This document shows positions 712 to 23,011 of a stretch of 36,779 nucleotides of DNA, in pieces (the first letter of the stretch is position 1; every line of letters begins with the position of its first letter). The stretch lies in UHGV virus genome UHGV-0182470, one strand, 5' to 3'. Both the position numbers and the translations under genes were made by a program. The stretch is from a virus. The notes under the pieces were generated by a model. It worked only from the letters and a program-made list of their open reading frames with translations. It made no database searches and was not told where the DNA came from.

Positions 712-930
712 TCAAAAATTCATATGCCCCTGACCACCTGGCAATGGATGTGGAGGAGCAGTAGCAATCAGTGCGGGTGTCACAATAAACCGGACCACTG
801 TTTCATGGGTAACAAAAGTGCTCCCGCAGTTAATATTTTGGCACTGGCAGTAACGCTCTTTGGTGCTTTCTGTTACTTGAAAACTGCTCCTTGTGTGCGC
901 CGCATGACCACACTTCGGACAATTCATCAT
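712..930 (-). CDS. ogr: Ogr-type zinc-finger late gene activator (ORF extends to 975; likely start at the internal Met)
   Basis: Translation MMNCPKCGHAAHTRSS...KERYCQCQNINCGSTF...HPLP matches the C4 zinc-finger pattern of P2 Ogr / 186 B; located next to gene D as in P2. Confidence 0.85.
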   Translation of the reverse strand: MMNCPKCGHAAHTRSSFQVTESTKERYCQCQNINCGSTFVTHETVVRFIVTPALIATAPPHPLPGGQGHMNF

Positions 931-2581: not shown

Positions 2582-5500
2582 GCGTCGTATCCCCCCTGAT
2601 CGCTGTAGTTACTCCTGGCTTTTGCCTTCAGCCTGCGTTCACGTTCATCAAGCTGGCGGGCCACCTCCCGCGCAATATCCTGCGCACTTTGTCCTGGCTG
2701 CGTCTGAATGATGATCTGCGTCGGTGCCTCAATCCGTTGAACGGGCGGCACAGTGGCTGCACGACTCACCATCGCTTCGCCGCCTTTCGAGGGAAGTGCC
2801 AAAGGATGCAACGGTGGAAGCTCTGCAGGCGCGGCAGCAACGCCCATCATTCCGGCAACAACGGCAGCCAGTGAAGCTGTATTTCTCCGGCTGGTCACAT
2901 TTGCCGGGCCGTTAACAATTTCCGGCCCGTTTTCACCGACGATGCCAAACTGCCCGCGCGGGATATAGCCGCCGCTGTCATACATCCCCGCAAAGCCATA
3001 TCCCCATGACGGAAAACCACCCGATGGCATCATCACTTTACCGTCTGCATTCACCGTCGCAGGTTGCTGACGCGTCACGCTTTCCGGCAGTTTCGCCTTT
3101 GCGGCCTCTTTACTGACAATGCCGAGTTTTTCCAGCAACCAGGATACGCCGGATTTCAGGGAGTCCAGCGGATGCATGACCATATTCAGCCCTTCCGCCA
3201 GCGCCTCCCCGAATCGTCGCCCCATTGCCGCTGCGCTCTGCAGTTCGGCAGAAGTCGACTTAACGGGCGTCAGCAAATCAGTAAACCAGCCCCACAGCGC
3301 CTGCACTTTGTCGCCAATCCACTGGAACACAGGCTTAAGCGGTTCGAATGCGGCACTGATGGGTCCTGCCGCCGCTTTGAATCCTTCCACCACGCCACCG
3401 AGAAATGCGGTGATGGGTTGCCAGTATTTCCAGACAACCAGCGCCACGCCCGCCAGTGCAGTAACCACAAGACCTATCGGACTGAGCAGAGCACCTAACA
3501 GACCAGATACGGCATACAGGGCAACGCGCAGCATCGCCAGTGGACCAGATGCCAGTACTCGCAGCACCGTGCCTGCGGCGGCCAGTCCACCGCGCAGTAC
3601 CGCCAGAGGATTCATAAACATCACAGCAGCAGCACGTAAACCGGATAATCCAGACCGGAACAGTGCAACCGGCGCACCTGCTACAGTTTTCAGGACATTC
3701 CCCGTCAGTGATGCCGTGCGACGCAAAGACGACAACGGAGCAGTAAGTAAACCCGCTGCGTTGCCCGATGAAGCAAGCCCGCGTCGCAGCAGTGCCAGTG
3801 GAGCGCCAGCTAACCAGGACAACGCGCTGCTGGTTCGTGTTACTGCTGCGGTAACGGAAGGTAACGTTTTGATACCCAGCACAGAGAATCCCAGACGGAT
3901 GACTGCCAGCGGCCCCAGCACTGCAGCCAGCGCCACCGCTAAGGTGCCGAGGCCTACGGTAACCGCAGCCACAACAGCCGCTACTTTCATCAGTGTGCCT
4001 GTCAGTTCCGGGTTAGCTTCCACCCAGCGGCGCAACGCCCCCGTGATGCTTTTCACCGTGTACAGAATATCCATCAGCGGCTGGCGCAGCGTTTCGCCCA
4101 GGCTGCTGAAGGTGTTCTGCGCTCCGGTTTTGACCAGCAACCACTGAGCAGAAAGTGAGTCTTTGTTGATGTCGGATTCTTTCTGCATGGAACCGAGCGC
4201 ATCATTGCCCGCTGTCAGTTTTAGCTGGCGCTGCAGTTCCGGAAGGTTGTTTGCCAGTTTCGCCGCGTCATCACCAAACTCTTTACCAAACAACATGGTC
4301 ATGGCAGACAGACGCTTGTCCTGCGGCAGTGCGTTCACCTTCTCCAGCACACGCTGGATAGTTCCCATCGCATCCTTCGTCATCTGCTTTTCAATCACTT
4401 CAGGATTGAGTTTCAGCAGATTCATCCCTTCAAAGAAACTCTTGCTTTGCATGGTGGCAATGGACAATTCACGCACCATCGCGTTTGCTGCACTGGCTGC
4501 AACCTCCGGTGCAGCGCCCAGTGTCAGGAAGGTGGAACCCAGCGCCGCCGCTTTACGATAATCCAGACGGTCAGCCACACCGCCCAGACGCTGCATCACA
4601 TCAATGATGTCCGCCCCTTTCGACATGGCGTTATCATCCAGAAAGTTCAGCGCATCACCGAGCTGTTCAATATTGCGGGTTGGTATTTTGTAGAGCTGGG
4701 CGATTTTCCCCAGACTTTCTGACAGTTCATCCGCTGGCAGCTCAAAGGCTGTTGCCGCTTTTGCTGCCGTACTGGCGAAGGCCAGCAGGTCACGTTTCTG
4801 GTCCTCCCAGCTGTCGTCAGGGTTTGCCACATTCATGCGCGCACCACCTTCAACCAGTGCGGCGAAGTCCACAGCACCGTTTTCCATTGGCAGCTGTTCA
4901 CTGGCAGCTTTGATGGCATCCTGCATTTCGTAAAAACGCGCAGTGCGGTTGCCATTATCGTCACGCAGACCATTGACCTGCTTTGCCACACCTTTCATGG
5001 CATCTTCCATGCTGGTATAGCTTTTTACCGCCGCCATCACTGGCGCGCCCATTGCCAGCCCTGCAGCCGTGGTGGTGGCTCCGGCTCCTGCGATGCGATC
5101 GCGCACTTCAAGCCGTCTTGAGTATTGTTCTCTGGCAACGTTCATCCGTGCCTGTTGTTCACCCAGACGTTTAAGTGCTTTTTGCTGGCCCTCCAGTGCC
5201 TGACGAGTTTCTTCGGCATTTTTCTTAAGTTCTCGCTGGGCACTACTGAGTTGTCTGGTATCAATCCCTGATTCTTTAAGTGCCTGACGTTGTCTCTGGA
5301 CCGCCCCCAACAAGCCGTTATAGGTCTGCTGAAGTTCCTGTACTCGTGTTTTGGCCTGACTGAATAACTTTGCTTGCGCGGCGGTTGGCCTGTTAGTGGC
5401 AGCAAATTGTGTGGCGAGTTTTGCCGCCTCTTCGCGGGCTGTGTTCAGGTTGTTGGCTGTTATGGCTAGTTGCGAGCGCGTCTTGCGAAATTCATCAATT

Positions 5501-6663: not shown

Positions 6664-7836
6664 TTACGCGCTGACCTGGCTGGAGAAATTCACCAGGTAC
6701 TGATCGGTGATGCGCTGACGCAGCATCAGGTTTTCAAGTGGCGGCACTGGCGTGTAGTCGTAGTCGATGGTGAGTTTTCCGGCTTTCAGCGTGTCTTTGT
6801 CGTTCACCGACTCATCCAGCCAGCAATCACCACCAATGAGATAGCCCTGACTGACCAGGCTGCGCATTTTGGCGCGGATACCCTCGATAATGTCGCGGGC
6901 CAGCGACGGATTCAGCGGTTTATCCACCGCCCACATGTGCGCTTCTGCCATCGTGTCCGTCAGCACCTGCGCCGTGCGGGTGTAGTTTTCGAAGGCAAAG
7001 AGCGGGTCATCACTCAGGCAGCGGGAACCCCAGAAGCGAAAACCGTCTTTGCGGATAAGGGTGGTGACGTCGTTCTGGTTCAGCAGTCCCGCATCGGTTG
7101 CCGGGTCCTGCAGATCCCAGAACACATCAGCAGAAATTCCGGTGACACCGTTAACGCCCACGTTGGACAGGCTTTTGTGCCATCCGGTCTGCTCGTCAAT
7201 TTTGGCGCGCAGACCAAGCGCACGGGCGGTGGCATAAGCCGTTGCTTCGGCATTCAGCACCGTGTCCCAGCCAGTAAAGTCGGGCCAGATCAGCATTCCT
7301 TCACGCTGACTGAAGTTTTCACGGTAAGTGATTGCTTCCTGCACCGTCTTGCAACCATACGCTGACAGGTAAGCAAATCCACGCAGGCTTTGCGCCACGC
7401 TCAGCAACTCAGTAGCTACCGCCTTCGTGTCGTGACCTGGCACGCCGAGAATGCGCGGTTTAACGCCGAGCTGTGACTGGGCAGATAACAGGGCTTTCAT
7501 GCCTGTTTTTTTACCTTCAGCGGTCACTGCTCCGATGATATTGGTCGTGGTTTCTTCTTCCGTTTCACCCTGCGGCACACGCACAACAACGGTCACGGGT
7601 TTTGCCTGGTCAGCGATGGCATCCAGCGAACGAGCCAGCGTGCCTGACTCACCCGCTTTACCGCTGGCAGTCAGCACATCAGTGATCAGCACGGGTTTAT
7701 TAAGAGGAAACATTTTTGCATCGGCATCATCGCCCGTGCAGACCATACCCACGATGGCGGTGCTCACCGTGGTAATGGATCGGGTGCCTTCGTTGACTTC
7801 AACAACGCGCACCCCGTGGTGGTAATCCTGAGCCAT
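6664..7836 (-). CDS. FI: Tail sheath protein FI
   Basis: 390-aa ORF starting [14 protein letters not shown]..., typical contractile sheath; first gene of F operon. Confidence 0.9.
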
Positions 7837-7912
7837 AGTGGCGAACCTCCTGATTGGATTAGGCTTCGCCCTATGTTGAAGTGATTGTGCCTGACAAACA
7901 GCTAAGCGCAGT

Positions 7913-7930
7913 TGTACCGTTATTCACACA
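7913..7930. promoter_or_regulatory. Ogr/B-type late activator site (TGT-N12-ACA) of the FI-operon late promoter
   Basis: TGTACCGTTATTCACACA ~80-95 bp upstream of FI start codon; shares extended motif TGTACCG-N5-CACACAAA with the site at 21181. Confidence 0.55.
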
Positions 7931-7978
7931 AAATGACGGTATTTGTCTGCTTTCAGGGATAATCAAAATAATGCTGAT

Positions 7979-8551
7979 TCAGGGGGATTCATTACTCTTA
8001 TTTGCCGGAAATTTTCTATAAATTGTGGAAACACCCACATCAAAAATCAGTGCAATACGCTGTCTTGATTCTCCGGCCTCGAGTAAGCGTCCAATCTGTG
8101 CCCACTGTTCGGTAGTCAACTTAGGACGGCGTCCACCTACTCTGCCTTTGGCGCGAGCTGCAGCAAGCCCCGCCCTGGTACGTTCAACTATCAGTTCGCG
8201 TTCCATTTCAGCCAGGGCACCCATGACATGAAAAAAGAAACGGCCCATTGGGGTACTGGTATCAATACTGTCAGTCAGGCTTCGGAAATTCACACCTCGC
8301 TGGCGCAACTCTTCTATCAACGTAACAAGATGCCGCATACTGCGCCCCAACCTGTCCAGCTTCCAGACAACCAGCGTGTCTCCTGCCGATAGTGTCCTGA
8401 GCAGTTTTTTCAGCCCCGGTCTGTTGGACTTAGTGCCACTGATTTTGTCCTCAAAAATCCGCTCACATCCCGCGCAGTTCAGTGCATTACGTTGCAAATC
8501 GGTGTTCTGGTCATTTGTTGACACGCGTACATAGCCAATAAGCATGATCAA
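7979..8551 (-). CDS. Serine recombinase, DNA invertase (Hin/Gin/Cin/Pin family)
   Basis: 190-aa ORF MIMLIGYVRVSTNDQNTDLQ...GDTLVVWKLDRLGRS...C-terminal HTH; catalytic Ser motif YVRVST; lies 50 bp from an invertase crossover-type site. Confidence 0.9.
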   Translation of the reverse strand: MIMLIGYVRVSTNDQNTDLQRNALNCAGCERIFEDKISGTKSNRPGLKKLLRTLSAGDTLVVWKLDRLGRSMRHLVTLIEELRQRGVNFRSLTDSIDTSTPMGRFFFHVMGALAEMERELIVERTRAGLAAARAKGRVGGRRPKLTTEQWAQIGRLLEAGESRQRIALIFDVGVSTIYRKFPANKSNESP

Positions 8552-8600
8552 TCCCCTGAATAAAAACCGGGGATGATGCCAGTTAGCCGTTATCTCTGCA

Positions 8601-8626
8601 TTTTCATAAACGTTGGTTTGGGAGAA
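8601..8626. repeat. Invertase crossover site, left (hix/gix-like)
   Basis: TTTTCATAAACGTTGGTTTGGGAGAA; its reverse complement matches the first 14 nt of the site at 10056-10081 exactly (TTCTCCCAAACCAA). Confidence 0.75.
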
Positions 8627-8956
8627 GCCAGATATGTCATTCAGCGAGGAGCTAATGTCAATGGAGCATGGATACGCTGGTCAGATGGTGCAATAGAAGT
8701 ATTTGGAACTGGTGGTTCCAATGATAATGGGCTGGCTAAAGTCGTTTATCCAATTGCACTACCTAAGCTTTCACGTTTTATCAGCATAGCGGAAAGAATA
8801 AGAACAGATTACGAGGCCACACCTAATAACGTTCACGTTTCAATGATCGTGGATGACCAGGTCAGTAATACAGGTTTTTATGTCCGCTGCCAGATGTACG
8901 ACGGAAGACCATCAACAAGTGCTTTTTCCTGGAGAGTTTATTGTGCGCCTGTTTAA
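8601..8956 (+). CDS. Silent alternative tail-fibre C-terminal segment (no own start; fused to H constant part after inversion)
   Basis: Open frame from the left crossover site (...VGLGEARYVIQRGANVNGAWIRW...RVYCAPV) in the same phase as GLGEA in H. Confidence 0.6.
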
Positions 8957-9140
8957 TCCTGTTACTTTGACTGAAGTAATCCCCGGTCTTCATGACGTGA
9001 CCGGGGCTGTGGAATTACCAGAAGATAACTGGTTTTTTACTGCATCTGAAATCCCTGAAGGAATGGAAATATCTGTTAACGAGAAGGGCGAACCCATTCT
9101 GATTGAGATTAAACCATCTCAGGTGGAACTGGCCAGATAA
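8943..9140 (+). CDS. Alternative small tail-fibre assembly/chaperone-like ORF (silent orientation)
   Basis: GTG start with GGAGAG RBS 6 nt upstream, overlapping the end of the alternative fibre segment; 65 aa; assignment by position only. Confidence 0.4.
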   Translation: MRLFNPVTLTEVIPGLHDVTGAVELPEDNWFFTASEIPEGMEISVNEKGEPILIEIKPSQVELAR

Positions 9141-9375
9141 CCCCCGGCGCGGTGCTGGTATCTGCTTCCATCACCGCGTCGATATTACCAACATCATATT
9201 CAGTCATTTCCGGTTCCGGTGGTGCTATAAACTCTCCGTCAGAATAGAACCAACCGACGCCTGCATCTATATGATCAACATTTATAATTTCGCAATTAGA
9301 GAATAAATCACCCTCTCCATCCCAGATAATAATATTTTTCACCACGCCATGTTCAATCAGAGCAAAATTACTCAT
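9109..9375 (-). CDS. Small tail-fibre assembly/chaperone-like protein (expressed orientation)
   Basis: 88-aa ORF starting at the stop of H (ATGA overlap), inside the invertible segment; assignment by position. Confidence 0.5.
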   Translation of the reverse strand: MSNFALIEHGVVKNIIIWDGEGDLFSNCEIINVDHIDAGVGWFYSDGEFIAPPEPEMTEYDVGNIDAVMEADTSTAPGVIWPVPPEMV

Positions 9376-11117
9376 CAGGCATACTCCTCAACAATAACTA
9401 TTCCCGGGGCACCGTCACCTCCCGATTGAGCCTCACTTCCGGCAGGTGCGCAGGCTCCGCCTCCGCCAGCACCAAAGCCCTCAGCTTTACCACCACCACG
9501 TCCTCTGAATGATGAAGAACTTGCACCACCTATACCGCCTGAACCTAATGGTGTATCCCCCCCGGTACCACCTGCTACAGCTTTAACAGAGATAACCATT
9601 GCTCCTGGTGTTTTTGCACTACAGCGAAATGCTCTTAGTACAGTGCCGGACGATGTCGGACTGGCACCCCATGAAATACCCTGAATATATGATGTGTTTG
9701 CAGATGCTCCCCCCGCGCCACCGCCTGTACCACCAGGTGCAGTTATCATGGAACCGAAATAAGTTGTGCCACCTTCACTACCTGAATTTCTTCCGGCTCC
9801 CCCCCCTTTACCTGCAGCACCGATAATAACGTTGACTTCGAAATCATTATCAACCTCGAAAAATGCTTCAATAAATGCGCCGCTCAATCCAGCTCCGGCT
9901 GTTGCCTGCTGATTTTCTGTTGTTTCAGGAACCCCACCGCCGCCGCCGCCACCACCAGAGGCAATGACCCTTATCTTTTTTGTCCCTGGTGTTGGGATAT
10001 ATTTTCCAGAGCTTTTAAAAATATTCGTGTTTAACAAACGACCAGAGAATCTGGCTTCTCCCAAACCAAGGTATGCGAGAAGACCAGTTACATCCTTTCC
10101 ACTCAAATTAGTCAACGTATTGTCCAGCGGTTGTTTACCTGCCAGCGCATTAAGCATTGTCGTGGCAAAGTTCGGATCATTCCCCAGTGCCGCCGCCAGT
10201 TCGTTCAGTGTATCCAGTGCCGCAGGTGCAGAACCCACCATTGCTGCAATCGCTGATTTCACAAAAGCCGTAGTGGCAATCTGTGTATTGTTGACCGACT
10301 GCGCCGCCGTGGGGGCTGTTGGCGTTCCGGTGAGTACCGGACTCGACAGCGGCGCTTTCAGTGCCAGCGCATTGTTAATGGTGGTACTGAATTTCGGATC
10401 ATTGTTAATGGCTACGGCTATTTCTTTCAGCGTGTCCAGCGTGGCTGGCGCACCATTAATAAGAGCCGTCAGTGCCGCCTGAACAAATGCTGTGGTCGCA
10501 AGCTGCGTGGTATTATTCCCCGCCGCTGGCGTTGGCGCTTTGGGGGTTCCGGTAAACGTCGGACTTTCTTTGGGTGCATACTGTGAATGCGGGTCCGGTG
10601 CGGCAAGATGTTTTGCCATCAGGTCATCCACGTACACCTTCAACTCCAGTGCTTTGTCATCCACATACTTGCGGGTTGCCAGCACTACAGCAGGGTCGAT
10701 TTTCAGGGTGATATTGTCCGTGCTGCTGGTTATCAGCGCCATGCGCACGGTCTGGGTGCGCCCGCTGCCTTCAGCCAGTTGCGGCTTATAGCTTTCCGGG
10801 CAGTTGCCCACGGCAATCAATGCCCCGGACTCATCAAACAGGCCCACTTCACGGATCCACCAACCGCCCTCGTTTTCAGGGATCACCTGTTCGGCAATAA
10901 TCTGGCTGCTGTTCTGCGGGTCGATATAGAGCATATTCAGCGCAGCCCGGCGTTTCTCATTTACCAGTGCAGTCTGCTTTGCGTCCGGCGTTGGCAATCT
11001 TCCGCCGCCATCGCCGACCGCCATATGGGTAATTTTTAACGGCACACCGAGCGCGGCGGCGCTGGCAAGTTTCGCCGCGCCAATATCCGTCAGCAGGGTA
11101 TAAAATTTTGTGCTCAT
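9375..11117 (-). CDS. H: Tail fibre protein H (constant N-terminal part 10082-11117; variable C-terminal part inside invertible segment)
   Basis: 580-aa ORF with repeated QLATTAFV / QIATTAFV motifs and Gly-rich C-terminal region; follows baseplate gene I. Confidence 0.85.
   Translation of the reverse strand: MSTKFYTLLTDIGAAKLASAAALGVPLKITHMAVGDGGGRLPTPDAKQTALVNEKRRAALNMLYIDPQNSSQIIAEQVIPENEGGWWIREVGLFDESGALIAVGNCPESYKPQLAEGSGRTQTVRMALITSSTDNITLKIDPAVVLATRKYVDDKALELKVYVDDLMAKHLAAPDPHSQYAPKESPTFTGTPKAPTPAAGNNTTQLATTAFVQAALTALINGAPATLDTLKEIAVAINNDPKFSTTINNALALKAPLSSPVLTGTPTAPTAAQSVNNTQIATTAFVKSAIAAMVGSAPAALDTLNELAAALGNDPNFATTMLNALAGKQPLDNTLTNLSGKDVTGLLAYLGLGEARFSGRLLNTNIFKSSGKYIPTPGTKKIRVIASGGGGGGGGVPETTENQQATAGAGLSGAFIEAFFEVDNDFEVNVIIGAAGKGGGAGRNSGSEGGTTYFGSMITAPGGTGGGAGGASANTSYIQGISWGASPTSSGTVLRAFRCSAKTPGAMVISVKAVAGGTGGDTPLGSGGIGGASSSSFRGRGGGKAEGFGAGGGGACAPAGSEAQSGGDGAPGIVIVEEYA
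10056..10081. repeat. Invertase crossover site, right (inside tail-fibre gene H)
   Basis: TTCTCCCAAACCAAGGTATGCGAGAA, inverted relative to the 8601 site; encodes the GLGEA peptide shared by H and the silent alternative fibre segment. Confidence 0.75.
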
Positions 11118-12659: not shown

Positions 12660-12966
12660 CGTTATTACGCCGCCCGATCAGCTCCACCACCATTGAACCG
12701 TCAAAATTGCTATTGATGGTGATGGAATCCAGCGTCAGCCGTGGCTCCCAGCGACTCAGCGCCACATACACTGCCGACATGACCTGCAGGCGTAATGCCG
12801 GATTTTGTGGCTGGTCTATCAGTGTCGACAGCAGGGAACCATATTCACGACGGGCAATGCGGCTACCCTGCGGTGTCAGTAGAATGTCCCGCACCGACTG
12901 ACGCAGATGGTCAATATCAGTAATGGCTTTACCGCTGGTATTGTTCATCCCGCTATAAAGCGTCAT
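12607..12966 (-). CDS. W: Baseplate protein W (gp25-like)
   Basis: 119-aa ORF, position and size match P2 gpW. Confidence 0.85.
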   Translation of the reverse strand: MTLYSGMNNTSGKAITDIDHLRQSVRDILLTPQGSRIARREYGSLLSTLIDQPQNPALRLQVMSAVYVALSRWEPRLTLDSITINSNFDGSMVVELIGRRNNGVPVSLSVSTGAENGSD

Positions 12967-13541
12967 ACCGGGCCTCCGGTTGTGTCGCCGCCTTTCAGGA
13001 CGCCAGTATGCTGATGTGCATCAACCACAATTCCGTTAGAACTCATTGCACCGCCGCCCTGGGTAACACCACCATTGATCACTACTTCGCTGTTAATGCG
13101 TGTGCGGTCAGCCTCCAGTACAAACTCACTGGTTTTCATGGTGATATTGTCGGCGGTCTCAATGACCATTGATTTGATGCCCCTGACATACCAGCGCCCG
13201 GTGGCGGGTTCGTATTCAAACCAGCCGCCGTCAGGATGCTCTGTCACGCAGGCATCCGCCGACGTCGACGGTGGTGCGAACTGATTCGAATAGATGGCGG
13301 GCAGCGCAAACGCGGTTTCAAGATTTCCGCCCAGACTCAGCAGCACCACCTGCTCACCTTCCGATGGTTTCCACCATGTGCGGGCATTCCCGGCACGCAG
13401 CGTCAGCCAGCTGATCCAGTTGGTTTCGAGGTCGCCAGTTTTCACCCGACACAGCCAGTTTGCCCTGTCCACTTCGGTGACTACACCTGTGCGGATCAGG
13501 TTGGTGATAAGGCGCATGATTTCGGTTAATTGTGCGTTCAT
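12963..13541 (-). CDS. V: Baseplate spike/hub protein V
   Basis: 192-aa ORF MNAQLTEIMRLITNLIRTGVV... resembling P2 gpV. Confidence 0.85.
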   Translation of the reverse strand: MNAQLTEIMRLITNLIRTGVVTEVDRANWLCRVKTGDLETNWISWLTLRAGNARTWWKPSEGEQVVLLSLGGNLETAFALPAIYSNQFAPPSTSADACVTEHPDGGWFEYEPATGRWYVRGIKSMVIETADNITMKTSEFVLEADRTRINSEVVINGGVTQGGGAMSSNGIVVDAHQHTGVLKGGDTTGGPV

Positions 13542-13761
13542 AGGGAAAGGTTGCCATCAATAGCAAGCAGTAGACAGCCTTTGTAATTGTATTAGACATA
13601 GAACAAATGCCTTTCAATGGTCTGCGTTAGAGCATTAATACGTTGCAAAAGGTCGAATGACGTTGCGCAAGTTAAGAAGTTCAATGCTCTTAAAAAAGCA
13701 CTTGAAAGCTACGCCTTTAATTATTAAAAGCCAATTAATTTAGGCAGTTACTATGTTATCT

Positions 13762-13793
13762 TTGACACAAAAGATGTTTATTGACAATATATA
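13762..13793 (+). promoter_or_regulatory. Putative sigma70 promoter of the DUF262 cargo gene
   Basis: TTGACA at 13762-13767 followed ~17-18 bp later by AT-rich -10-like hexamer (CAATAT/AATATA); ATG at 13820 with AAGGAG RBS. Confidence 0.35.
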
Positions 13794-13819
13794 AATTCAA
13801 TCTAACAAGGAGAAAAATT

Positions 13820-15595
13820 ATGCCAAATGAAAATCTTGATATTGACTCAAGGACTACCGAGCAATTATACGAATGGTATTTGCAAGGAAATTTGATAGTC
13901 AATAGACGTTATCAAAGGAAACTTGTATGGTCTCTAGAAGAAAAGACTTCTTTAATATCTTCTATGCTGCAACAATATCCTATTCCGTTATTATTATTTG
14001 TTACCATCAATGAACAAAGAGAAATATTGGATGGAATGCAAAGATTAGAAGCAATTATGAGCTTCATCGAACAGAGATTTTCATTAGATGGACAATATTT
14101 TGATTTGGACTCTATAGCTTTAACAAAACAACTTAAAGATAATGGAACTTTAATTCAGAAAGAACCAATCCTTTCCCGTGATTCTTCAGCAATTATTGCA
14201 CGTTATCGATTTGCAATATCAGAATATAGCTCCACAAATGAAAATATTGACGAAGTATTCAGACGAATAAACTCAAACGGGAAGATTTTATCCAAACAAG
14301 AATTACGTAGTGCAGGAACAGTTAGTAACTTCTCTGAACTGGTCAGATCGATATCAACATCGATCAGAGGTGATACTAGCCATTCTGACATTATGAATCT
14401 CCAGCAAATGCACAAAATTTCAATCAGTAACGATAGATTGGAGTACGGGGTAAATATCGATAACCACTTTTATATAAAACATCATATTTTAACAAGACGA
14501 AGTATTCGTGATTCTGATGACGAGGAATTGATAGCCAATATCCTTGCATATATCAGTCTAGAAGAAAAACCCACATCTGGGTCAACTTCTCTCGACACAT
14601 TCTATGGTCAAGGAAACTCCTCTCATGCTCATGGTGTCAGACAGCAATTAGAGTCTTTCATTCAAACCAATAACGCTGCCACTATTAAGCAGAATTTCAT
14701 AGCTGTATATGAATTAATTACAAGCCTATATGACGGAAAAAATGATACTTTTAGAAGCCATATTTTAGGGGAGGATAATTCATCTCAAGAATGCCCTCGT
14801 TATTATCAAGCTGTGTTTTTGTCTATTTATGAACTTCTTTTCAACCAAAATATGCAATTAATTGATAAAGAAGGTTTATTCTCGCAATTAAAAAACACTG
14901 GCAATACCATAATTATGGTTACCGATGGTGGCCGCTGGGCTGCAAGCACTCGTGAAAAAAGTGTTAATGATCTTGTTGCATTAATAAGTCGCTACTTCCA
15001 ACCTGCTCCTCAAAAGTATGTGAATCATGCTTGGGTAACTGAAATTCGCAATCTATTAACAAATTCTAGAACTGAACAACCAAGTTATGATTTCAAACAG
15101 GGGTTCTTTAATTTATCAGGTAAAAATGAATTTGATGATGAATGTTTAAAAGGAATATTACAAACTTGCGTAGCAATAAATAATATTGGAAAAAGCGCAA
15201 AAGGCTATATTTTAGTTGGTATTGCCGAAAATAAATTAACCGCAGATAGAATTCAACATTTATATGGAGTAAATTCAATTGAGTTCAATGGGTTCTATAT
15301 AAACGGAATTGATCATGAAGCAATGTTAGTCTCTGGTAGCATTGATGGTTACTTTATGTTAATAAAACAAAAAATACAAGGATACAATTTCACTGAAACT
15401 CTAAAACAGCAGATACTTAAGAATATTGAGTTTTGCTCTTACAATGGCTTACACATACTCAAGATAACTATTCAGAGCACAGGTCAAATTTGCGACTTTG
15501 AGAATATGTTTTATATCAGACAAGGCTCATCGACTGATCCAGTTACGGATACACAAAAAATCTCAGCCCTATTTAACTCTTACATGAACAGCTAA
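13820..15595 (+). CDS. DUF262 (ParB/GmrS-like N-terminal domain) protein, candidate defence cargo gene
   Basis: 591 aa from ATG 13820 (AAGGAG RBS; ORF track start 13781 is upstream in frame); N-terminal region ...RRYQRKLVWS...ILDGMQRLEAI matches the DGQQR signature region of DUF262; visibly AT-rich relative to flanking phage genes; opposite strand to S and V. Confidence 0.7.
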   Translation: MPNENLDIDSRTTEQLYEWYLQGNLIVNRRYQRKLVWSLEEKTSLISSMLQQYPIPLLLFVTINEQREILDGMQRLEAIMSFIEQRFSLDGQYFDLDSIALTKQLKDNGTLIQKEPILSRDSSAIIARYRFAISEYSSTNENIDEVFRRINSNGKILSKQELRSAGTVSNFSELVRSISTSIRGDTSHSDIMNLQQMHKISISNDRLEYGVNIDNHFYIKHHILTRRSIRDSDDEELIANILAYISLEEKPTSGSTSLDTFYGQGNSSHAHGVRQQLESFIQTNNAATIKQNFIAVYELITSLYDGKNDTFRSHILGEDNSSQECPRYYQAVFLSIYELLFNQNMQLIDKEGLFSQLKNTGNTIIMVTDGGRWAASTREKSVNDLVALISRYFQPAPQKYVNHAWVTEIRNLLTNSRTEQPSYDFKQGFFNLSGKNEFDDECLKGILQTCVAINNIGKSAKGYILVGIAENKLTADRIQHLYGVNSIEFNGFYINGIDHEAMLVSGSIDGYFMLIKQKIQGYNFTETLKQQILKNIEFCSYNGLHILKITIQSTGQICDFENMFYIRQGSSTDPVTDTQKISALFNSYMNS

Positions 15596-15638
15596 TCAAT
15601 CGCCATCTCCACAGGAGCTGGCTTATGGATAAAAACAA

Positions 15639-15672
15639 AAGACGAGAGGGTTATTTAAACCTCCTCGTCTTT
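15639..15672. terminator. Bidirectional rho-independent terminator between DUF262 gene and S
   Basis: AAGACGAGAGGG ... CCTCCTCGTCTT hairpin flanked by A-tract upstream and TTATTTTG downstream. Confidence 0.6.
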
Positions 15673-16117
15673 ATTTTGATAGCTCCTCCTTTATGCTCAT
15701 AATAATATTTTCTTCTGTTTTATAAGATAAGCCCAATAAAGTACGTTGCGGATATTTCGCGATTAAACCTTTTTTATTTACGCGATCACGCAGACCGTAA
15801 TGGTGAACACGGGCAATGCGCTGTACCTTACCTTCAAACTGTACGCTGGCAGAATCGGCGCTGGCGGCAGTTTTCAGGTATTTTGTGGTGCGCAGCTTTG
15901 CAAACATCTGACGTTTGATACGCCCCTTTTTACTGCGTGCTGTTACCCGTCGCGGTTCATAACTACTGCCATCTGGATTGCGCTGCATCCTGATGTTCTT
16001 CTGTTGTGTCCTGCGCAGTTCCTGCGCCAGTTGGCGCATCATGCGGCTTCTTGCGGCTGGTTCCAGATTCGCCAGCAAGGCACTCAGCCAGTCGTCAACT
16101 TTCTGCAGTTCAGCCAC
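15671..16117 (-). CDS. S: Tail completion protein S
   Basis: 148-aa ORF, position after R; P2 gpS-like. Confidence 0.85.
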   Translation of the reverse strand: MAELQKVDDWLSALLANLEPAARSRMMRQLAQELRRTQQKNIRMQRNPDGSSYEPRRVTARSKKGRIKRQMFAKLRTTKYLKTAASADSASVQFEGKVQRIARVHHYGLRDRVNKKGLIAKYPQRTLLGLSYKTEENIIMSIKEELSK

Positions 16118-17065: not shown

Positions 17066-17577
17066 AGTCCAGCTCCTTTAAGGCACCAGGCCATCTCCCG
17101 CGCACGGCGGTTATCCAGCCCCTGATTAAACACACCTTTTACATAAACCCAGCGCGGCAACTGTCGGCATGCATCCGCCCAGCGCCGCTGATTGAGTAAT
17201 TTCACCAGTGTGGAACTGCAGGCATTGCTAGTTCCCACGTTGAAGGCAAACGACACCACCGAGTCATACACCTTTTGCGGCGGCTGTTGCTTCACACACC
17301 TTTCCAGCACCCGCTCCACACGCAGCACATTAGAGATCAGTCCTTCTGCTGCCTGTCGTTCCGTAATGGTTTTGCCGGGAATGACGCCCGATGTATTACC
17401 AATGCCGTCGGTCCAGACACCCGCGCTGCACTGATACGGCTGCAGACGACAGCCTTCGTAATCGGCAATCAGTTTCACCCCCTCTACGGAGGTGTGAAGC
17501 TGCTGAAAACCCGGCAGAGTGGCAGCAATAGCCAGCACGGTCCCGACAAGGCAACGTTTAACGATTGATGGATTCAT
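17062..17577 (-). CDS. K: Endolysin, SAR-type lysozyme (P21 R-like)
   Basis: N-terminal hydrophobic SAR-like segment (CLVGTVLAIAATLPG), lysozyme core, C-terminal ...LRRWVYVKG...RRAREMAWCL resembling P21 R. Confidence 0.8.
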   Translation of the reverse strand: MNPSIVKRCLVGTVLAIAATLPGFQQLHTSVEGVKLIADYEGCRLQPYQCSAGVWTDGIGNTSGVIPGKTITERQAAEGLISNVLRVERVLERCVKQQPPQKVYDSVVSFAFNVGTSNACSSTLVKLLNQRRWADACRQLPRWVYVKGVFNQGLDNRRAREMAWCLKGAGL

Positions 17578-17773
17578 AATCCTCCCGCGAGATCTGCCCG
17601 TCGCGCAGAAGCTGGTAGGCTTTGTGTTTGTAGTACCAGTTGATAGCCAGCATCAGCACACCAATCATCAGGCCACCCAGCGTTGAGGCATCCTTGATGG
17701 ACAAATCGCCCAGCCAGGCCAGCACGACGGCGATGCAATACGTGATAAAGGCGCTGATTCGCTCAAGCGTCAT
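17558..17773 (-). CDS. Y: Holin (two predicted TM segments)
   Basis: 71-aa ORF with two hydrophobic helices, immediately upstream of endolysin. Confidence 0.7.
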   Translation of the reverse strand: MTLERISAFITYCIAVVLAWLGDLSIKDASTLGGLMIGVLMLAINWYYKHKAYQLLRDGQISREDYESINR

Positions 17774-20268: not shown

Positions 20269-21102
20269 TCAGCAATTGGTCAGAGTGTCAGCGGGGGCGT
20301 TACCGCCTGTTGCACGCTGGCGGTAGTCCTGGCGGCTGTCTTCATGGCTCAGCTTGTCCACCAGTTCGTTAAAGGCGGTCTGCTGTGCCTGCAGGGCAGT
20401 CTCCAGCTCAGACAGGCGTTCTTCCTGCTCAGACAGGGATTTTTCGGTGCGCGCACTCAGGTTCTGCTGCTCAGTGGCGACCAGTTCCACGGCCTTATGC
20501 ACATCAGAGAACCGGGCGTCATCGGACTGCTCTTTTTTGGTGAACAGCGCCGTGACACGGGCAAACAGGGACGGCTTGTCCTCCTGGATTTCTTCCAGTT
20601 CGATCACCGTTTCCTCTGCGGCGGTAAAGAGATTGGCGGGATTCTGCTTGCGGTTTGCCAGCGGGTTATGGGCTGCACTGGCGCTGAATGTCAGCATTTC
20701 AGTGCCCAGACTGGCAGGGTCATCAGTGGCAGCCAGGCCGACCAGGTAGGCTTTGCCCGTATCAGCGAACTTCGGGCTGACTTCCATAGAGGTGAATAAT
20801 TTCTGGCCTTTTTTCACCAGTTCCACCAGGGACTCCGTTGGCTCAACGTCAGCATACAGCGCCATCTTGCCTGCCAGCGGACCTTCCGTGATTTCTTCAG
20901 CAAACAGCGCCGTCACCTTGCCGTAGCGGTTAAAGGTGCTGTCCGGCAGATAAGACTTGATGTGCTCAAGGTTAATCAGCGCGGTATACACCGCCGGGTT
21001 ATAGCTGGCTGCCATCTGTTCCAGCCATTCACGCTGGATTTCGCGTCCGTCGGTGGTGGCACCTTCCACCCCGATGCGAAAACGCTTTGCTTTCACTGTC
21101 AT
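20269..21102 (-). CDS. O: Capsid scaffolding protein O
   Basis: 277-aa acidic coiled-coil protein, divergent from P. Confidence 0.85.
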   Translation of the reverse strand: MTVKAKRFRIGVEGATTDGREIQREWLEQMAASYNPAVYTALINLEHIKSYLPDSTFNRYGKVTALFAEEITEGPLAGKMALYADVEPTESLVELVKKGQKLFTSMEVSPKFADTGKAYLVGLAATDDPASLGTEMLTFSASAAHNPLANRKQNPANLFTAAEETVIELEEIQEDKPSLFARVTALFTKKEQSDDARFSDVHKAVELVATEQQNLSARTEKSLSEQEERLSELETALQAQQTAFNELVDKLSHEDSRQDYRQRATGGNAPADTLTNC

Positions 21103-21180
21103 GAGCCGTGCTCCGTTAGAAAAAACTTACTGGAGCCTTATGGTTGCGGTGATGGGGGCAGTGAAACAATGCGCGGTATT

Positions 21181-21198
21181 TGTACCGACAACCACACA
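21181..21198. promoter_or_regulatory. Ogr/B-type late activator site (TGT-N12-ACA) in the divergent O/P promoter region
   Basis: TGTACCGACAACCACACA in the 142-bp O-P intergenic region; extended similarity to the site at 7913. Confidence 0.55.
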
Positions 21199-21244
21199 AA
21201 CCGCAGGCGGGGAAAGCCTTCATTCAAGGCTGTAGGTTTGTGCC

Positions 21245-23011
21245 ATGAACACCACACTGACACCCGCAGATCTCGATCCCCGTCGGCAGGCCATGCTGCT
21301 GTACTTTCAGGGATACCGCGTAGCCCGCATTGCTGAAATGCTGGGCGAGAAAGTTGCAACCGTTCACAGCTGGAAAAAACGCGACAAGTGGGGTGACTAT
21401 GGGCCGCTGGATCAGATGCAGCTCACCACCGCCGCACGCTACTGCCAGCTCATTATGAAGGAGCACAAAGAAGGGAAAGATTTCAAAGAGATTGACCTGC
21501 TGGCGCGCCAGTCTGAGCGCCACGCGCGGATCGGCAAGTTTAACAATGGCGGCAACGAAGCCGACTTAAACCCTAACGTCGCCAACCGCAACAAAGGCCC
21601 GCGCCGTCAGCCGGAAAAGAATGTCTTCACCGATGAACAGATTGAGAAGCTGGAAGAAATCTTCCATTCCTCCATGTTCAACTACCAGCGCCACTGGTGG
21701 GAAGCCGGAAAAACCAACCGCATCCGCAACCTGCTGAAGTCACGCCAGATCGGCGCAACCTTTTACTTTGCCCGTGAAGCCCTGATTGACGCCCTGCTTA
21801 CCGGGCGTAACCAGATTTTCCTTTCCGCCAGTAAGGCACAGGCCCACGTCTTTAAGCAGTACATCATCGACTTCGCCAAAGAAGTCGAAGTGGAGCTGAA
21901 AGGCGATCCGATGGTGCTTCCTAACGGGGCCACGCTTTACTTCCTAGGCACCAATGCCCGCACGGCCCAGAGTTACCACGGCAACCTGTATCTGGATGAA
22001 TATTTCTGGATCCCGAAATTCCAGGAGCTGCGCAAAGTGGCTTCCGGTATGGCTATTCACAAGAAATGGCGACAGACCTATTTTTCCACGCCATCCAGCC
22101 TGACCCACAGTGCTTATCCGTTCTGGTCCGGTGCGCTGTTCAACCGTGGGCGCAACAAAGCCGACAAGGTGGACATCGACCTGTCCCACAGCAATCTGGC
22201 TCCCGGTCTGCTGTGTGCAGACGGGCAATACCGCCAGATAGTCACCGTGGAAGATGCGGTGCGCGGCGGCTGTAACCTGTTCGACCTTGACCAGTTGCGC
22301 ATGGAATACAGCCCGGACGAATACCAGAACCTACTGATGTGTGAGTTCGTGGACGATCTCGCGTCCGTGTTCCCGCTCAGCGAGCTGCAGGCGTGCATGG
22401 TGGACAGCTGGGAAGTCTGGACCGACTTTCATGCACTGGCCCTGCGCCCGTTTGGCTGGCGCGAGGTGTGGATCGGTTATGACCCGGCAAAAGGTACGCA
22501 GAACGGCGACAGTGCCGGATGCGTAGTGGTGGCTCCGCCAGCCGTGCCTGGCGGTAAGTTCCGCATTCTTGAGCGTCACCAGTGGCGCGGGATGGACTTT
22601 CGCGCCCAGGCTGACGCCATCAAAAAACTGACCGAACAGTACAACGTGACATACATAGGTATCGACTCAACCGGCGTCGGTCACGGGGTTTACGAGAACG
22701 TGAAAGCGTTCTTTCCTGCCGTCCGGGAGTTCGTCTACAACCCCAATGTTAAAAACGCCCTGGTACTCAAGGCCTACGACATTATCAGCCACCGCCGTCT
22801 GGAGTTTGACGCCGGATACACCGACATAGCGCAGTCATTTATGGCAATCCGTCGCGCCACCACCGCCAGCGGCAACCGCCCGACCTATGAAGCCAGCCGC
22901 AGCGAAGAAGCCAGCCATGCTGATCTGGCCTGGGCAACGATGCATGCACTGTTTAACGAACCGCTGCAGGGCGAGTCCGCCAATACCAGCAATATTGTGG
23001 AGATTTTTTGA
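21245..23011 (+). CDS. P: Terminase large (ATPase) subunit P
   Basis: 588-aa ORF divergent from O; P2 gpP-like. Confidence 0.9.
   Translation: MNTTLTPADLDPRRQAMLLYFQGYRVARIAEMLGEKVATVHSWKKRDKWGDYGPLDQMQLTTAARYCQLIMKEHKEGKDFKEIDLLARQSERHARIGKFNNGGNEADLNPNVANRNKGPRRQPEKNVFTDEQIEKLEEIFHSSMFNYQRHWWEAGKTNRIRNLLKSRQIGATFYFAREALIDALLTGRNQIFLSASKAQAHVFKQYIIDFAKEVEVELKGDPMVLPNGATLYFLGTNARTAQSYHGNLYLDEYFWIPKFQELRKVASGMAIHKKWRQTYFSTPSSLTHSAYPFWSGALFNRGRNKADKVDIDLSHSNLAPGLLCADGQYRQIVTVEDAVRGGCNLFDLDQLRMEYSPDEYQNLLMCEFVDDLASVFPLSELQACMVDSWEVWTDFHALALRPFGWREVWIGYDPAKGTQNGDSAGCVVVAPPAVPGGKFRILERHQWRGMDFRAQADAIKKLTEQYNVTYIGIDSTGVGHGVYENVKAFFPAVREFVYNPNVKNALVLKAYDIISHRRLEFDAGYTDIAQSFMAIRRATTASGNRPTYEASRSEEASHADLAWATMHALFNEPLQGESANTSNIVEIF

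Follow-up and report, generated by a model that had tools for sequence, protein, structure and literature searches.

A P2-type late circuit in an E. coli prophage: a predicted Ogr-dependent promoter upstream of V, its activator dyad probably exchanged together with cargo DNA

Results and discussion

The stretch of DNA analysed here (36,779 nucleotides in all, hereafter the window) is an E. coli prophage of the P2-like type (Peduoviridae). Its late genes most probably (our rough estimate is 0.85) obey a standard P2-type circuit, in which operon V-W-J-I-H would be driven by its own Ogr-dependent promoter, the activator dyad of which would have been swapped in together with a block of cargo DNA. 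The original prediction had recorded no comparable site upstream of V and had asked how this operon is driven. Closer scanning uncovered a canonical, perfect TGT-N12-ACA dyad (TGTATTAGACATAGAACA) at 13588-13605. Since this dyad displays the geometry of the pV site of phage P2, the question of what drives V-W-J-I-H dissolves.

Late-gene organization and the Ogr activator

A complete P2-like late region was recognized by tblastn with P2 proteins, and the nearest phages were Klebsiella and E. coli Peduoviridae (e.g. phage 500465-1 and KP12). Minus-strand genes were ordered in three blocks: ogr (712-930), D, U, T, E, FII and FI (6664-7836); then H, I, J, W and V (12963-13541); and finally S (15671-16117), R, the lysis genes, X, L, M, N and O (20269-21102). 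P (21245-23011) and Q occupied the plus strand. The F operon begins with FI (tail sheath, 68% identical to its P2 counterpart), the O operon with O (capsid scaffold, assigned by tblastn with P2 proteins), the P-Q operon with P (large terminase, with an N-terminus collinear with P2 gpP) and the V-W-J-I-H operon with V (baseplate), upstream of which no Shine-Dalgarno sequence was found.

The assignment of the late-gene activator ogr to positions 712-930 (minus strand) was borne out. Its product matched Pfam family Ogr_Delta (PF04606) with a score above the curated cut-off (E-value 9.2e-21) and displayed the zinc-finger motif CX2CX22CX4C (C4-X2-C7-X22-C30-X4-C35). It was 56% identical to P2 Ogr, and the gene is a genuine member of the Ogr/Delta zinc-finger family.

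Each late operon was preceded by a TGT-N12-ACA dyad, located at 7913-7930 (FI), 21181-21198 (common to O and P) and 13588-13605 (V). Dyad centres were separated from the ATG by 85.5 bp for FI, 87.5 bp for O and 55.5 bp for both P and V. As a bare motif, TGT-N12-ACA was not enriched in the window (9 matches for 9.6 expected), so that its count is useless as evidence and the information is carried by position. The -10-like hexamers were CATAGG for pF, CATAAG for pO, TAGGTT for pP and CAACCT for pV, and a pattern scan of the transcribed strand found no sigma-70 consensus promoter at pF or pV.

Read together, the sequences, positions and conservation of these elements and the identity of Ogr suggest the following circuit. 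Ogr would bind the three dyads about 55-59 bp upstream of four late starts, the dyad at 7913-7930 serving pF, that at 21181-21198 serving pO and pP jointly and that at 13588-13605 serving pV. It would thereby recruit RNA polymerase to promoters with a weak -10 and no -35 element. The V-W-J-I-H transcript would begin at the V ATG or within 1-2 nt of it, from an Ogr-dependent promoter of its own. This promoter would have survived the arrival of cargo because the 3' end of S, the cargo and the dyad were exchanged as one block, with one crossover between dyad and -10, so that the incoming block would have supplied a dyad at the correct spacing.

Reference geometry

Late promoters of the P2 type are characterized by dependence on Ogr and on the alpha subunit of RNA polymerase (rpoA109 sensitivity). 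The geometry used for comparison was taken from the feature tables of the P2 (RefSeq) and 186 records. Four Ogr-dependent late promoters with the consensus TGT-N12-ACA are described for P2 (PMC3931495). In the P2 record, an activator site at 3057-3087 is common to pP (start 3016) and pO (start 3127). The pV site occupies 10239-10266 and the V-operon start (10308) is the first base of the V coding sequence, while the pF site (17555-17583) is followed by starts at 17626-17628, 24-26 nt ahead of FI. Site centres are thus found 55-59 bp from the measured starts (57-59 bp at pF). The 186 record contains a single B-protein site between the divergent promoters of the P and O homologues.

The annotated sites of P2 are not strict TGT-N12-ACA dyads: they read TGT-N12-CCA at pF and at pO/pP, and TGT-N11-ACA at pV, which indicates that the requirement on the core is less strict than the consensus implies. 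Sites in 186 and PSP3 read TGG-N12-ACA.

Predicted activator sites of pF and of pO/pP

A shared pattern TGTACCG-N5-CACACAAA had been announced for the FI and O/P regions and was indeed present in both. It was found upstream of FI at 7913-7932 (TGTACCGTTATTCACACAAA, which contains TGT-N12-ACA at 7913-7930) and in the O/P intergenic region at 21181-21200 (TGTACCGACAACCACACAAA, with TGT-N12-ACA at 21181-21198). With its 15 specified bases, the pattern matched only these two places in the window, even when 3 mismatches were allowed; by arithmetic, an exact second copy would arise by chance about 7e-5 times per window, a value to be read with caution since the pattern was derived from these two sites themselves.

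The proposal that both dyads are Ogr sites was supported by their position relative to the annotated sites and starts of P2 and 186, and by their universal presence in relatives (see below). The FI dyad is located 85.5 bp from the ATG (83 bp in P2) and the O/P dyad lies between divergent genes, which designates them as the predicted pF site and the predicted common pO/pP site, respectively. The former, on the minus strand, reads TTTGTGTGAATAACGGTACAA in the direction of FI, whose ATG is at 7836. A -10-like hexamer CATAGG was read from the sequence at 7870-7875 (minus strand), the AACATAGG block being kept in relatives. We predict the pF start close to 7864, some 57 bp away from the centre of the dyad; the leader would then measure about 27 nt and include an AGGAGG ribosome-binding site.

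The 142-bp O-P intergenic region contained one strong dyad between the ATGs of O (21102, minus strand) and P (21245, plus strand). Its position was fixed in 22 distinct relatives. The -10-like hexamer of pO, CATAAG, was read at 21137-21142 (minus strand), with a predicted start near 21130-21134.

Next to the pF region, a Hin/Gin-type serine invertase gene (7979-8551, Resolvase and HTH_7 domains) was recognized within 7979-10081. It adjoins a probable invertible tail-fibre segment flanked by a pair of 33-nt inverted repeats (8601-8633 and 10049-10081), of which the second lies within H.

Predicted activator site of pV

The V dyad reads TTTGTTCTATGTCTAATACAAT in the direction of V (minus strand), and the 55.5 bp between its centre and the A of the V ATG (13541) equal the distance between the P2 pV site and the annotated V start. 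The original prediction was right in stating that the native sequence upstream of V had been replaced: homology to cargo-less relatives ended at 13559, 18 bp before the ATG. These retained 18 bp lack a Shine-Dalgarno sequence and include a predicted extended -10, TGgCAACCT (13548-13556, minus strand), at -15 to -7 from the A of the ATG. As in the P2 annotation, the V transcript is predicted to be leaderless, beginning at the ATG or within 1-2 nt of it. The cargo-less relative NC_049342 displayed a palindromic dyad of its own (TTGTATCAGTGCTGATACAA), likewise 55.5 bp from the V ATG.

A dyad of this type occurs at chance frequency in the window, and the V dyad sits in an intergenic region common to V and the cargo gene. 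It might then be a chance match or an operator of the divergent cargo gene rather than an element of pV. This reading is extremely unlikely, given that a chance match at the exact P2 spacing has a likelihood of about 1/4000 (arithmetic) and that the same spacing recurred in 13 unrelated sequences beside different cargo, one of which was co-oriented with V.

These sequences came from a sample of 80 viral contigs coding for V proteins 96-100% identical to that of the window. All 26 distinct 110-nt sequences upstream of V contained TGT-N12-ACA at 54.5-57.5 bp from the ATG, mostly at 55.5 bp. At least 13 of the versions were mutually unrelated (13 remained after removal of similar sequences) and adjoined different cargo ORFs. 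The chance of a dyad falling in a 4-position window is about 0.001 per sequence (arithmetic), which makes its occurrence in 13 of 13 unrelated sequences decisive. When these 13 were aligned on the dyad, a yAwnnT motif appeared at columns 53-58 (A in 12/13, T in 11/13), and the V ATG was at column 65 in eight of them and 1-2 positions later in the others. A -10 element is thus found in unrelated sequences at a fixed distance from the dyad and seven bases ahead of the V start codon, from which a leaderless or nearly leaderless V transcript is predicted.

Cargo found in the slot between S and V beside near-identical V genes included DUF6216, an AAA_15/AAA_21 ATPase with a partner gene, SIR2_2 and several genes lacking a Pfam match. 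Contigs with such slots (L005, L007, L009, L011, L032, L033, L040, L044, L055, L066 and L076) each displayed their own dyad at the fixed distance.

Conservation was equally complete for the other two sites. Among 80 related contigs, all 62 distinct FI-upstream sequences contained a dyad at 78.5-85.5 bp from the ATG and the AACATAGG block, and the 22 distinct O-upstream sequences all had theirs at 87.5 bp. The pF site too is located at the edge of a variable (Z/fun-type) region. In four contigs (L084, L091, L095 and L118) with FI 98-99% identical, the upstream DNA differed wholly from 7837-7978 of the window and contained its own dyad at 84.5 bp; in the first three, a terminator-like GC hairpin occupied the place of the invertase end.

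Cargo module between S and V

BLAST boundaries against NC_049342 and GC content delimited an exchanged module at 13560-15779, which comprises the pV dyad, the cargo gene, a terminator and the last ~36 codons of S. It is 2.2 kb long with 33.6% GC, as against 55% in the adjoining late genes. Homology to cargo-less NC_049342 ended at 13559 and returned at 15780, inside S, so that the module takes the place of 159 bp in cargo-less relatives. The last ~36 codons of S are diverged yet homologous, and S remains 148 amino acids long. The simplest history is that everything from the 3' end of S through the cargo to the pV dyad was exchanged in one piece with another AT-rich phage of the P2-like group, rather than inserted into the intergenic region, which would explain how a correctly spaced dyad came along with the cargo.

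The cargo gene (13820-15595, plus strand) is divergent from V and codes for a protein with an N-terminal GmrSD_N (DUF262) domain, in agreement with RefSeq product names (GmrSD/DUF262). Its C-terminus displays a Schlafen/AlbA_2 domain in place of the usual DUF1524 nuclease domain. The gene probably serves in anti-phage defence.

A bidirectional intrinsic terminator, overlapping the S stop codon, was located at 15631-15677 between the cargo gene and S (hairpin 15641-15669, with T/U runs on both strands). It was missed by the pattern scanner, whose terminator and sigma-70 scans around pV and pF yielded nothing beyond chance, and confirmed by folding (-20.7 and -19.5 kcal/mol, with z-scores of -3.3 and -2.5).

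With native DNA replaced from 13560 onwards, the cargo could have removed the native pV, leaving V deprived of an Ogr site and expressed by read-through or from a sigma-70 promoter brought by the cargo. One sigma-70-like match, TTGGCA-16-TAGATT (minus strand, 13826 to 13799), does point at V; however, sigma-70-like matches near V were at chance level (8 for 9.6 expected). Read-through from the S/O operon into V would be blocked, since it meets the bidirectional terminator and a convergent gene of 1.8 kb. A perfect dyad occupies the pV position, as in every cargo variant compared. Loss of pV to the cargo is consequently very unlikely, and an Ogr-dependent pV carried by the exchanged block is retained as the preferred reading.

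The cargo-bearing locus was 99.5-100% identical in 28 complete E. coli genomes. At blastn sensitivity, the module had no match in the phage collection and matched only E. coli chromosomes. In two E. coli sequences (NZ_CP031134 and NZ_CP195467), an IS1 element was found inside the V-cargo-S locus.

Extended flanks and strength of the sites

A position weight matrix (PWM) was built from 29 non-redundant sites, those of the window being excluded; its consensus was a-TTGT-G-y-C-A-t ... y-r-r-y-ACA-A. The FI, O/P and V dyads were nevertheless among its top matches in the window. The FI dyad scored best (7910-7933, 22.8 bits), followed by the O/P dyad (21178-21201, 19.7 bits), a dyad overlapping the P ATG (21236-21259, 17.4 bits) and the V dyad (13585-13608, 16.1 bits). 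Maxima in shuffled windows averaged 13.1 bits, with a 95th percentile of 17.0. Two near-dyads were rejected as having no supporting geometry, namely 1177-1200 (TTGC...ACAA, inside D) and 13752-13769 (TAT-N12-ACA, upstream of the cargo gene).

The V dyad was weak. Its 16.1 bits in the best orientation (11.9 in the orientation of transcription) fell below the 95th percentile of the shuffled-window maximum and are not significant genome-wide when taken alone. Only two of 30 sites scored lower, and the value falls towards the bottom of the range spanned by the 29 reference sites (12.1-26.1 bits). Support for this dyad comes from its position and from relatives, not from its PWM score. Such a weak match raises the hypothesis that pV may be the weakest late promoter of the prophage.

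Late promoters were originally thought to share extended flanks around the core. This held in part: the FI and O/P sites were alike at 12 of 18 non-core positions, within the top 5% of unrelated site pairs (mean 8.7, s.d. 1.7), but the extension was not common to late promoters, the V site resembling either of them at only 6 of 18. Much of the extension was family consensus (TTGTGyCA...ACAA). Relative to genes FI and O, the FI and O/P sites are oriented alike, and the pF and pO sites of P2 are likewise similar beyond the core.

The likeness of the FI and O/P sites and the low score of the V dyad would also be expected if the specificity of Ogr had narrowed so as to need TTGTGTG and CGGTACAA half-sites. 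The V dyad would then be poor or non-functional, and expression of the V operon low or in need of help. This operon encodes tail parts that are indispensable and required at levels comparable to those of other late proteins, which counts against such a narrowing. Furthermore, relatives with near-identical late genes displayed very different pV and pF flanks (TTGTATCAGCACTGATACAA, TTGTGCCATTTTTCATACAA and others), a variety that argues for an activator tolerating variation outside TTGT/ACAA. Narrowed specificity is accordingly judged unlikely, and a functional pV remains the favoured interpretation.

Start of P

The P ORF has its earliest possible start codon at 21245. A leaderless P transcript is predicted in the window since the common dyad is centred only 55.5 bp upstream of this ATG, a predicted -10 hexamer TAGGTT (21233-21238, plus strand) is located at -12 to -7 from its A, and no Shine-Dalgarno sequence precedes it. 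The same arrangement was observed in Klebsiella phage ST15-OXA48phi14.1 (55.5 bp, TATGTT) and Yersinia phage vB_YenM_31.17 (56.5 bp, TAGCCT), TAnnnT thus occurring at -12 to -7 of P in two other Peduoviridae genera. P2, 186 and PSP3, by contrast, have 78.5-79 bp between dyad and P ATG, together with a GAGG ribosome-binding site. From these arrangements we infer that the P mRNA would be leaderless in the clade of the window, unlike that of P2 and 186.

A second dyad (TTTGTGCCATGAACACCACAC, 21239-21256) overlaps both the P start codon and the predicted pP start, and corresponds to the 17.4-bit match mentioned above. It was kept in close relatives and absent from Gegavirus and the Yersinia phage. 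It was rejected as a second promoter site, being not conserved in the latter two, devoid of a -10 at the right distance and partly coding, and it is probably a chance match.

Implications

P2 late regulation is hereby found again in one more prophage; this biology is well known and the finding itself is minor. What is mildly new is that activator sites appear to travel with cargo alleles at a fixed spacing, and that P as well as V appears leaderless. On balance, we favour a more general view in which the pV (and pF) activator sites would belong to exchangeable cargo alleles (in the S-V orf30 and G-FI Z/fun hot spots). Each block would bring its own dyad and often its own -10, at 55.5 +/- 1-2 bp from the V ATG, with breakpoints inside the promoter; V and P would be leaderless, P in this respect departing from P2 and 186.

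A useful correction ensues: the baseplate/tail-fibre operon is not orphaned by cargo in the S-V hot spot, since a dyad at the right spacing comes with each cargo allele. For annotation, a dyad centred some 55 bp ahead of the V ATG can be used to locate both pV and the right-hand limit of a defence-gene hot spot. The many unrelated but functional-looking promoters also form a natural mutagenesis series, in which the constrained positions are TTGT(G/A)yCA...ACAA, yAwnnT at a fixed distance and a predicted start at the ATG.

Comparison with known systems

The activator family and the dyad type are also those of the Delta-activated promoters of satellite P4 (Psid and PLL) and of other Ogr/Delta-family activators (PSP3 Pag and phiR73 Delta). 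The window apparently contains no P4-like element.

Horizontally acquired genes are commonly found in three regions of P2-like phages, among them the S-V (orf30) locus (PMC3091744). The window resembles the P2 orf30 locus in having cargo between S and V that is divergent from V, and differs from it in that the exchanged module extends over the 3' end of S and the pV dyad, both of which it replaces. The cargo itself is a GmrSD_N/Schlafen gene in the window and orf30 in P2.

For phage 186, whose B-dependent late promoters include p12/pV, the likeness consists in one annotated site between divergent promoters of the P and O homologues and in the activator family. The 186 site differs in reading TGG-N12-ACA, in lying 78.5 bp from the ATG of the P homologue and in the GAGG ribosome-binding site of its leader.

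The closest parallel is with the P2 late promoters pP, pO, pV and pF: gene order is the same, as are the four operons and the single common pO/pP site, and an Ogr/Delta zinc-finger activator is encoded after D. Dyads are found about 55-59 bp from the starts (predicted in the window), the V start of P2 being the V ATG. Yet the dyads of the window are perfect TGT-N12-ACA, in contrast to TGT-N12-CCA or TGT-N11-ACA in P2, and its Ogr is only 56% identical to that of P2. Spacings differ as well, the O-P intergenic region measuring 142 bp in the window and 173 bp in P2, and the distances from dyad to ATG being 55.5 versus 79 bp for P and 85.5 versus 83 bp for FI.
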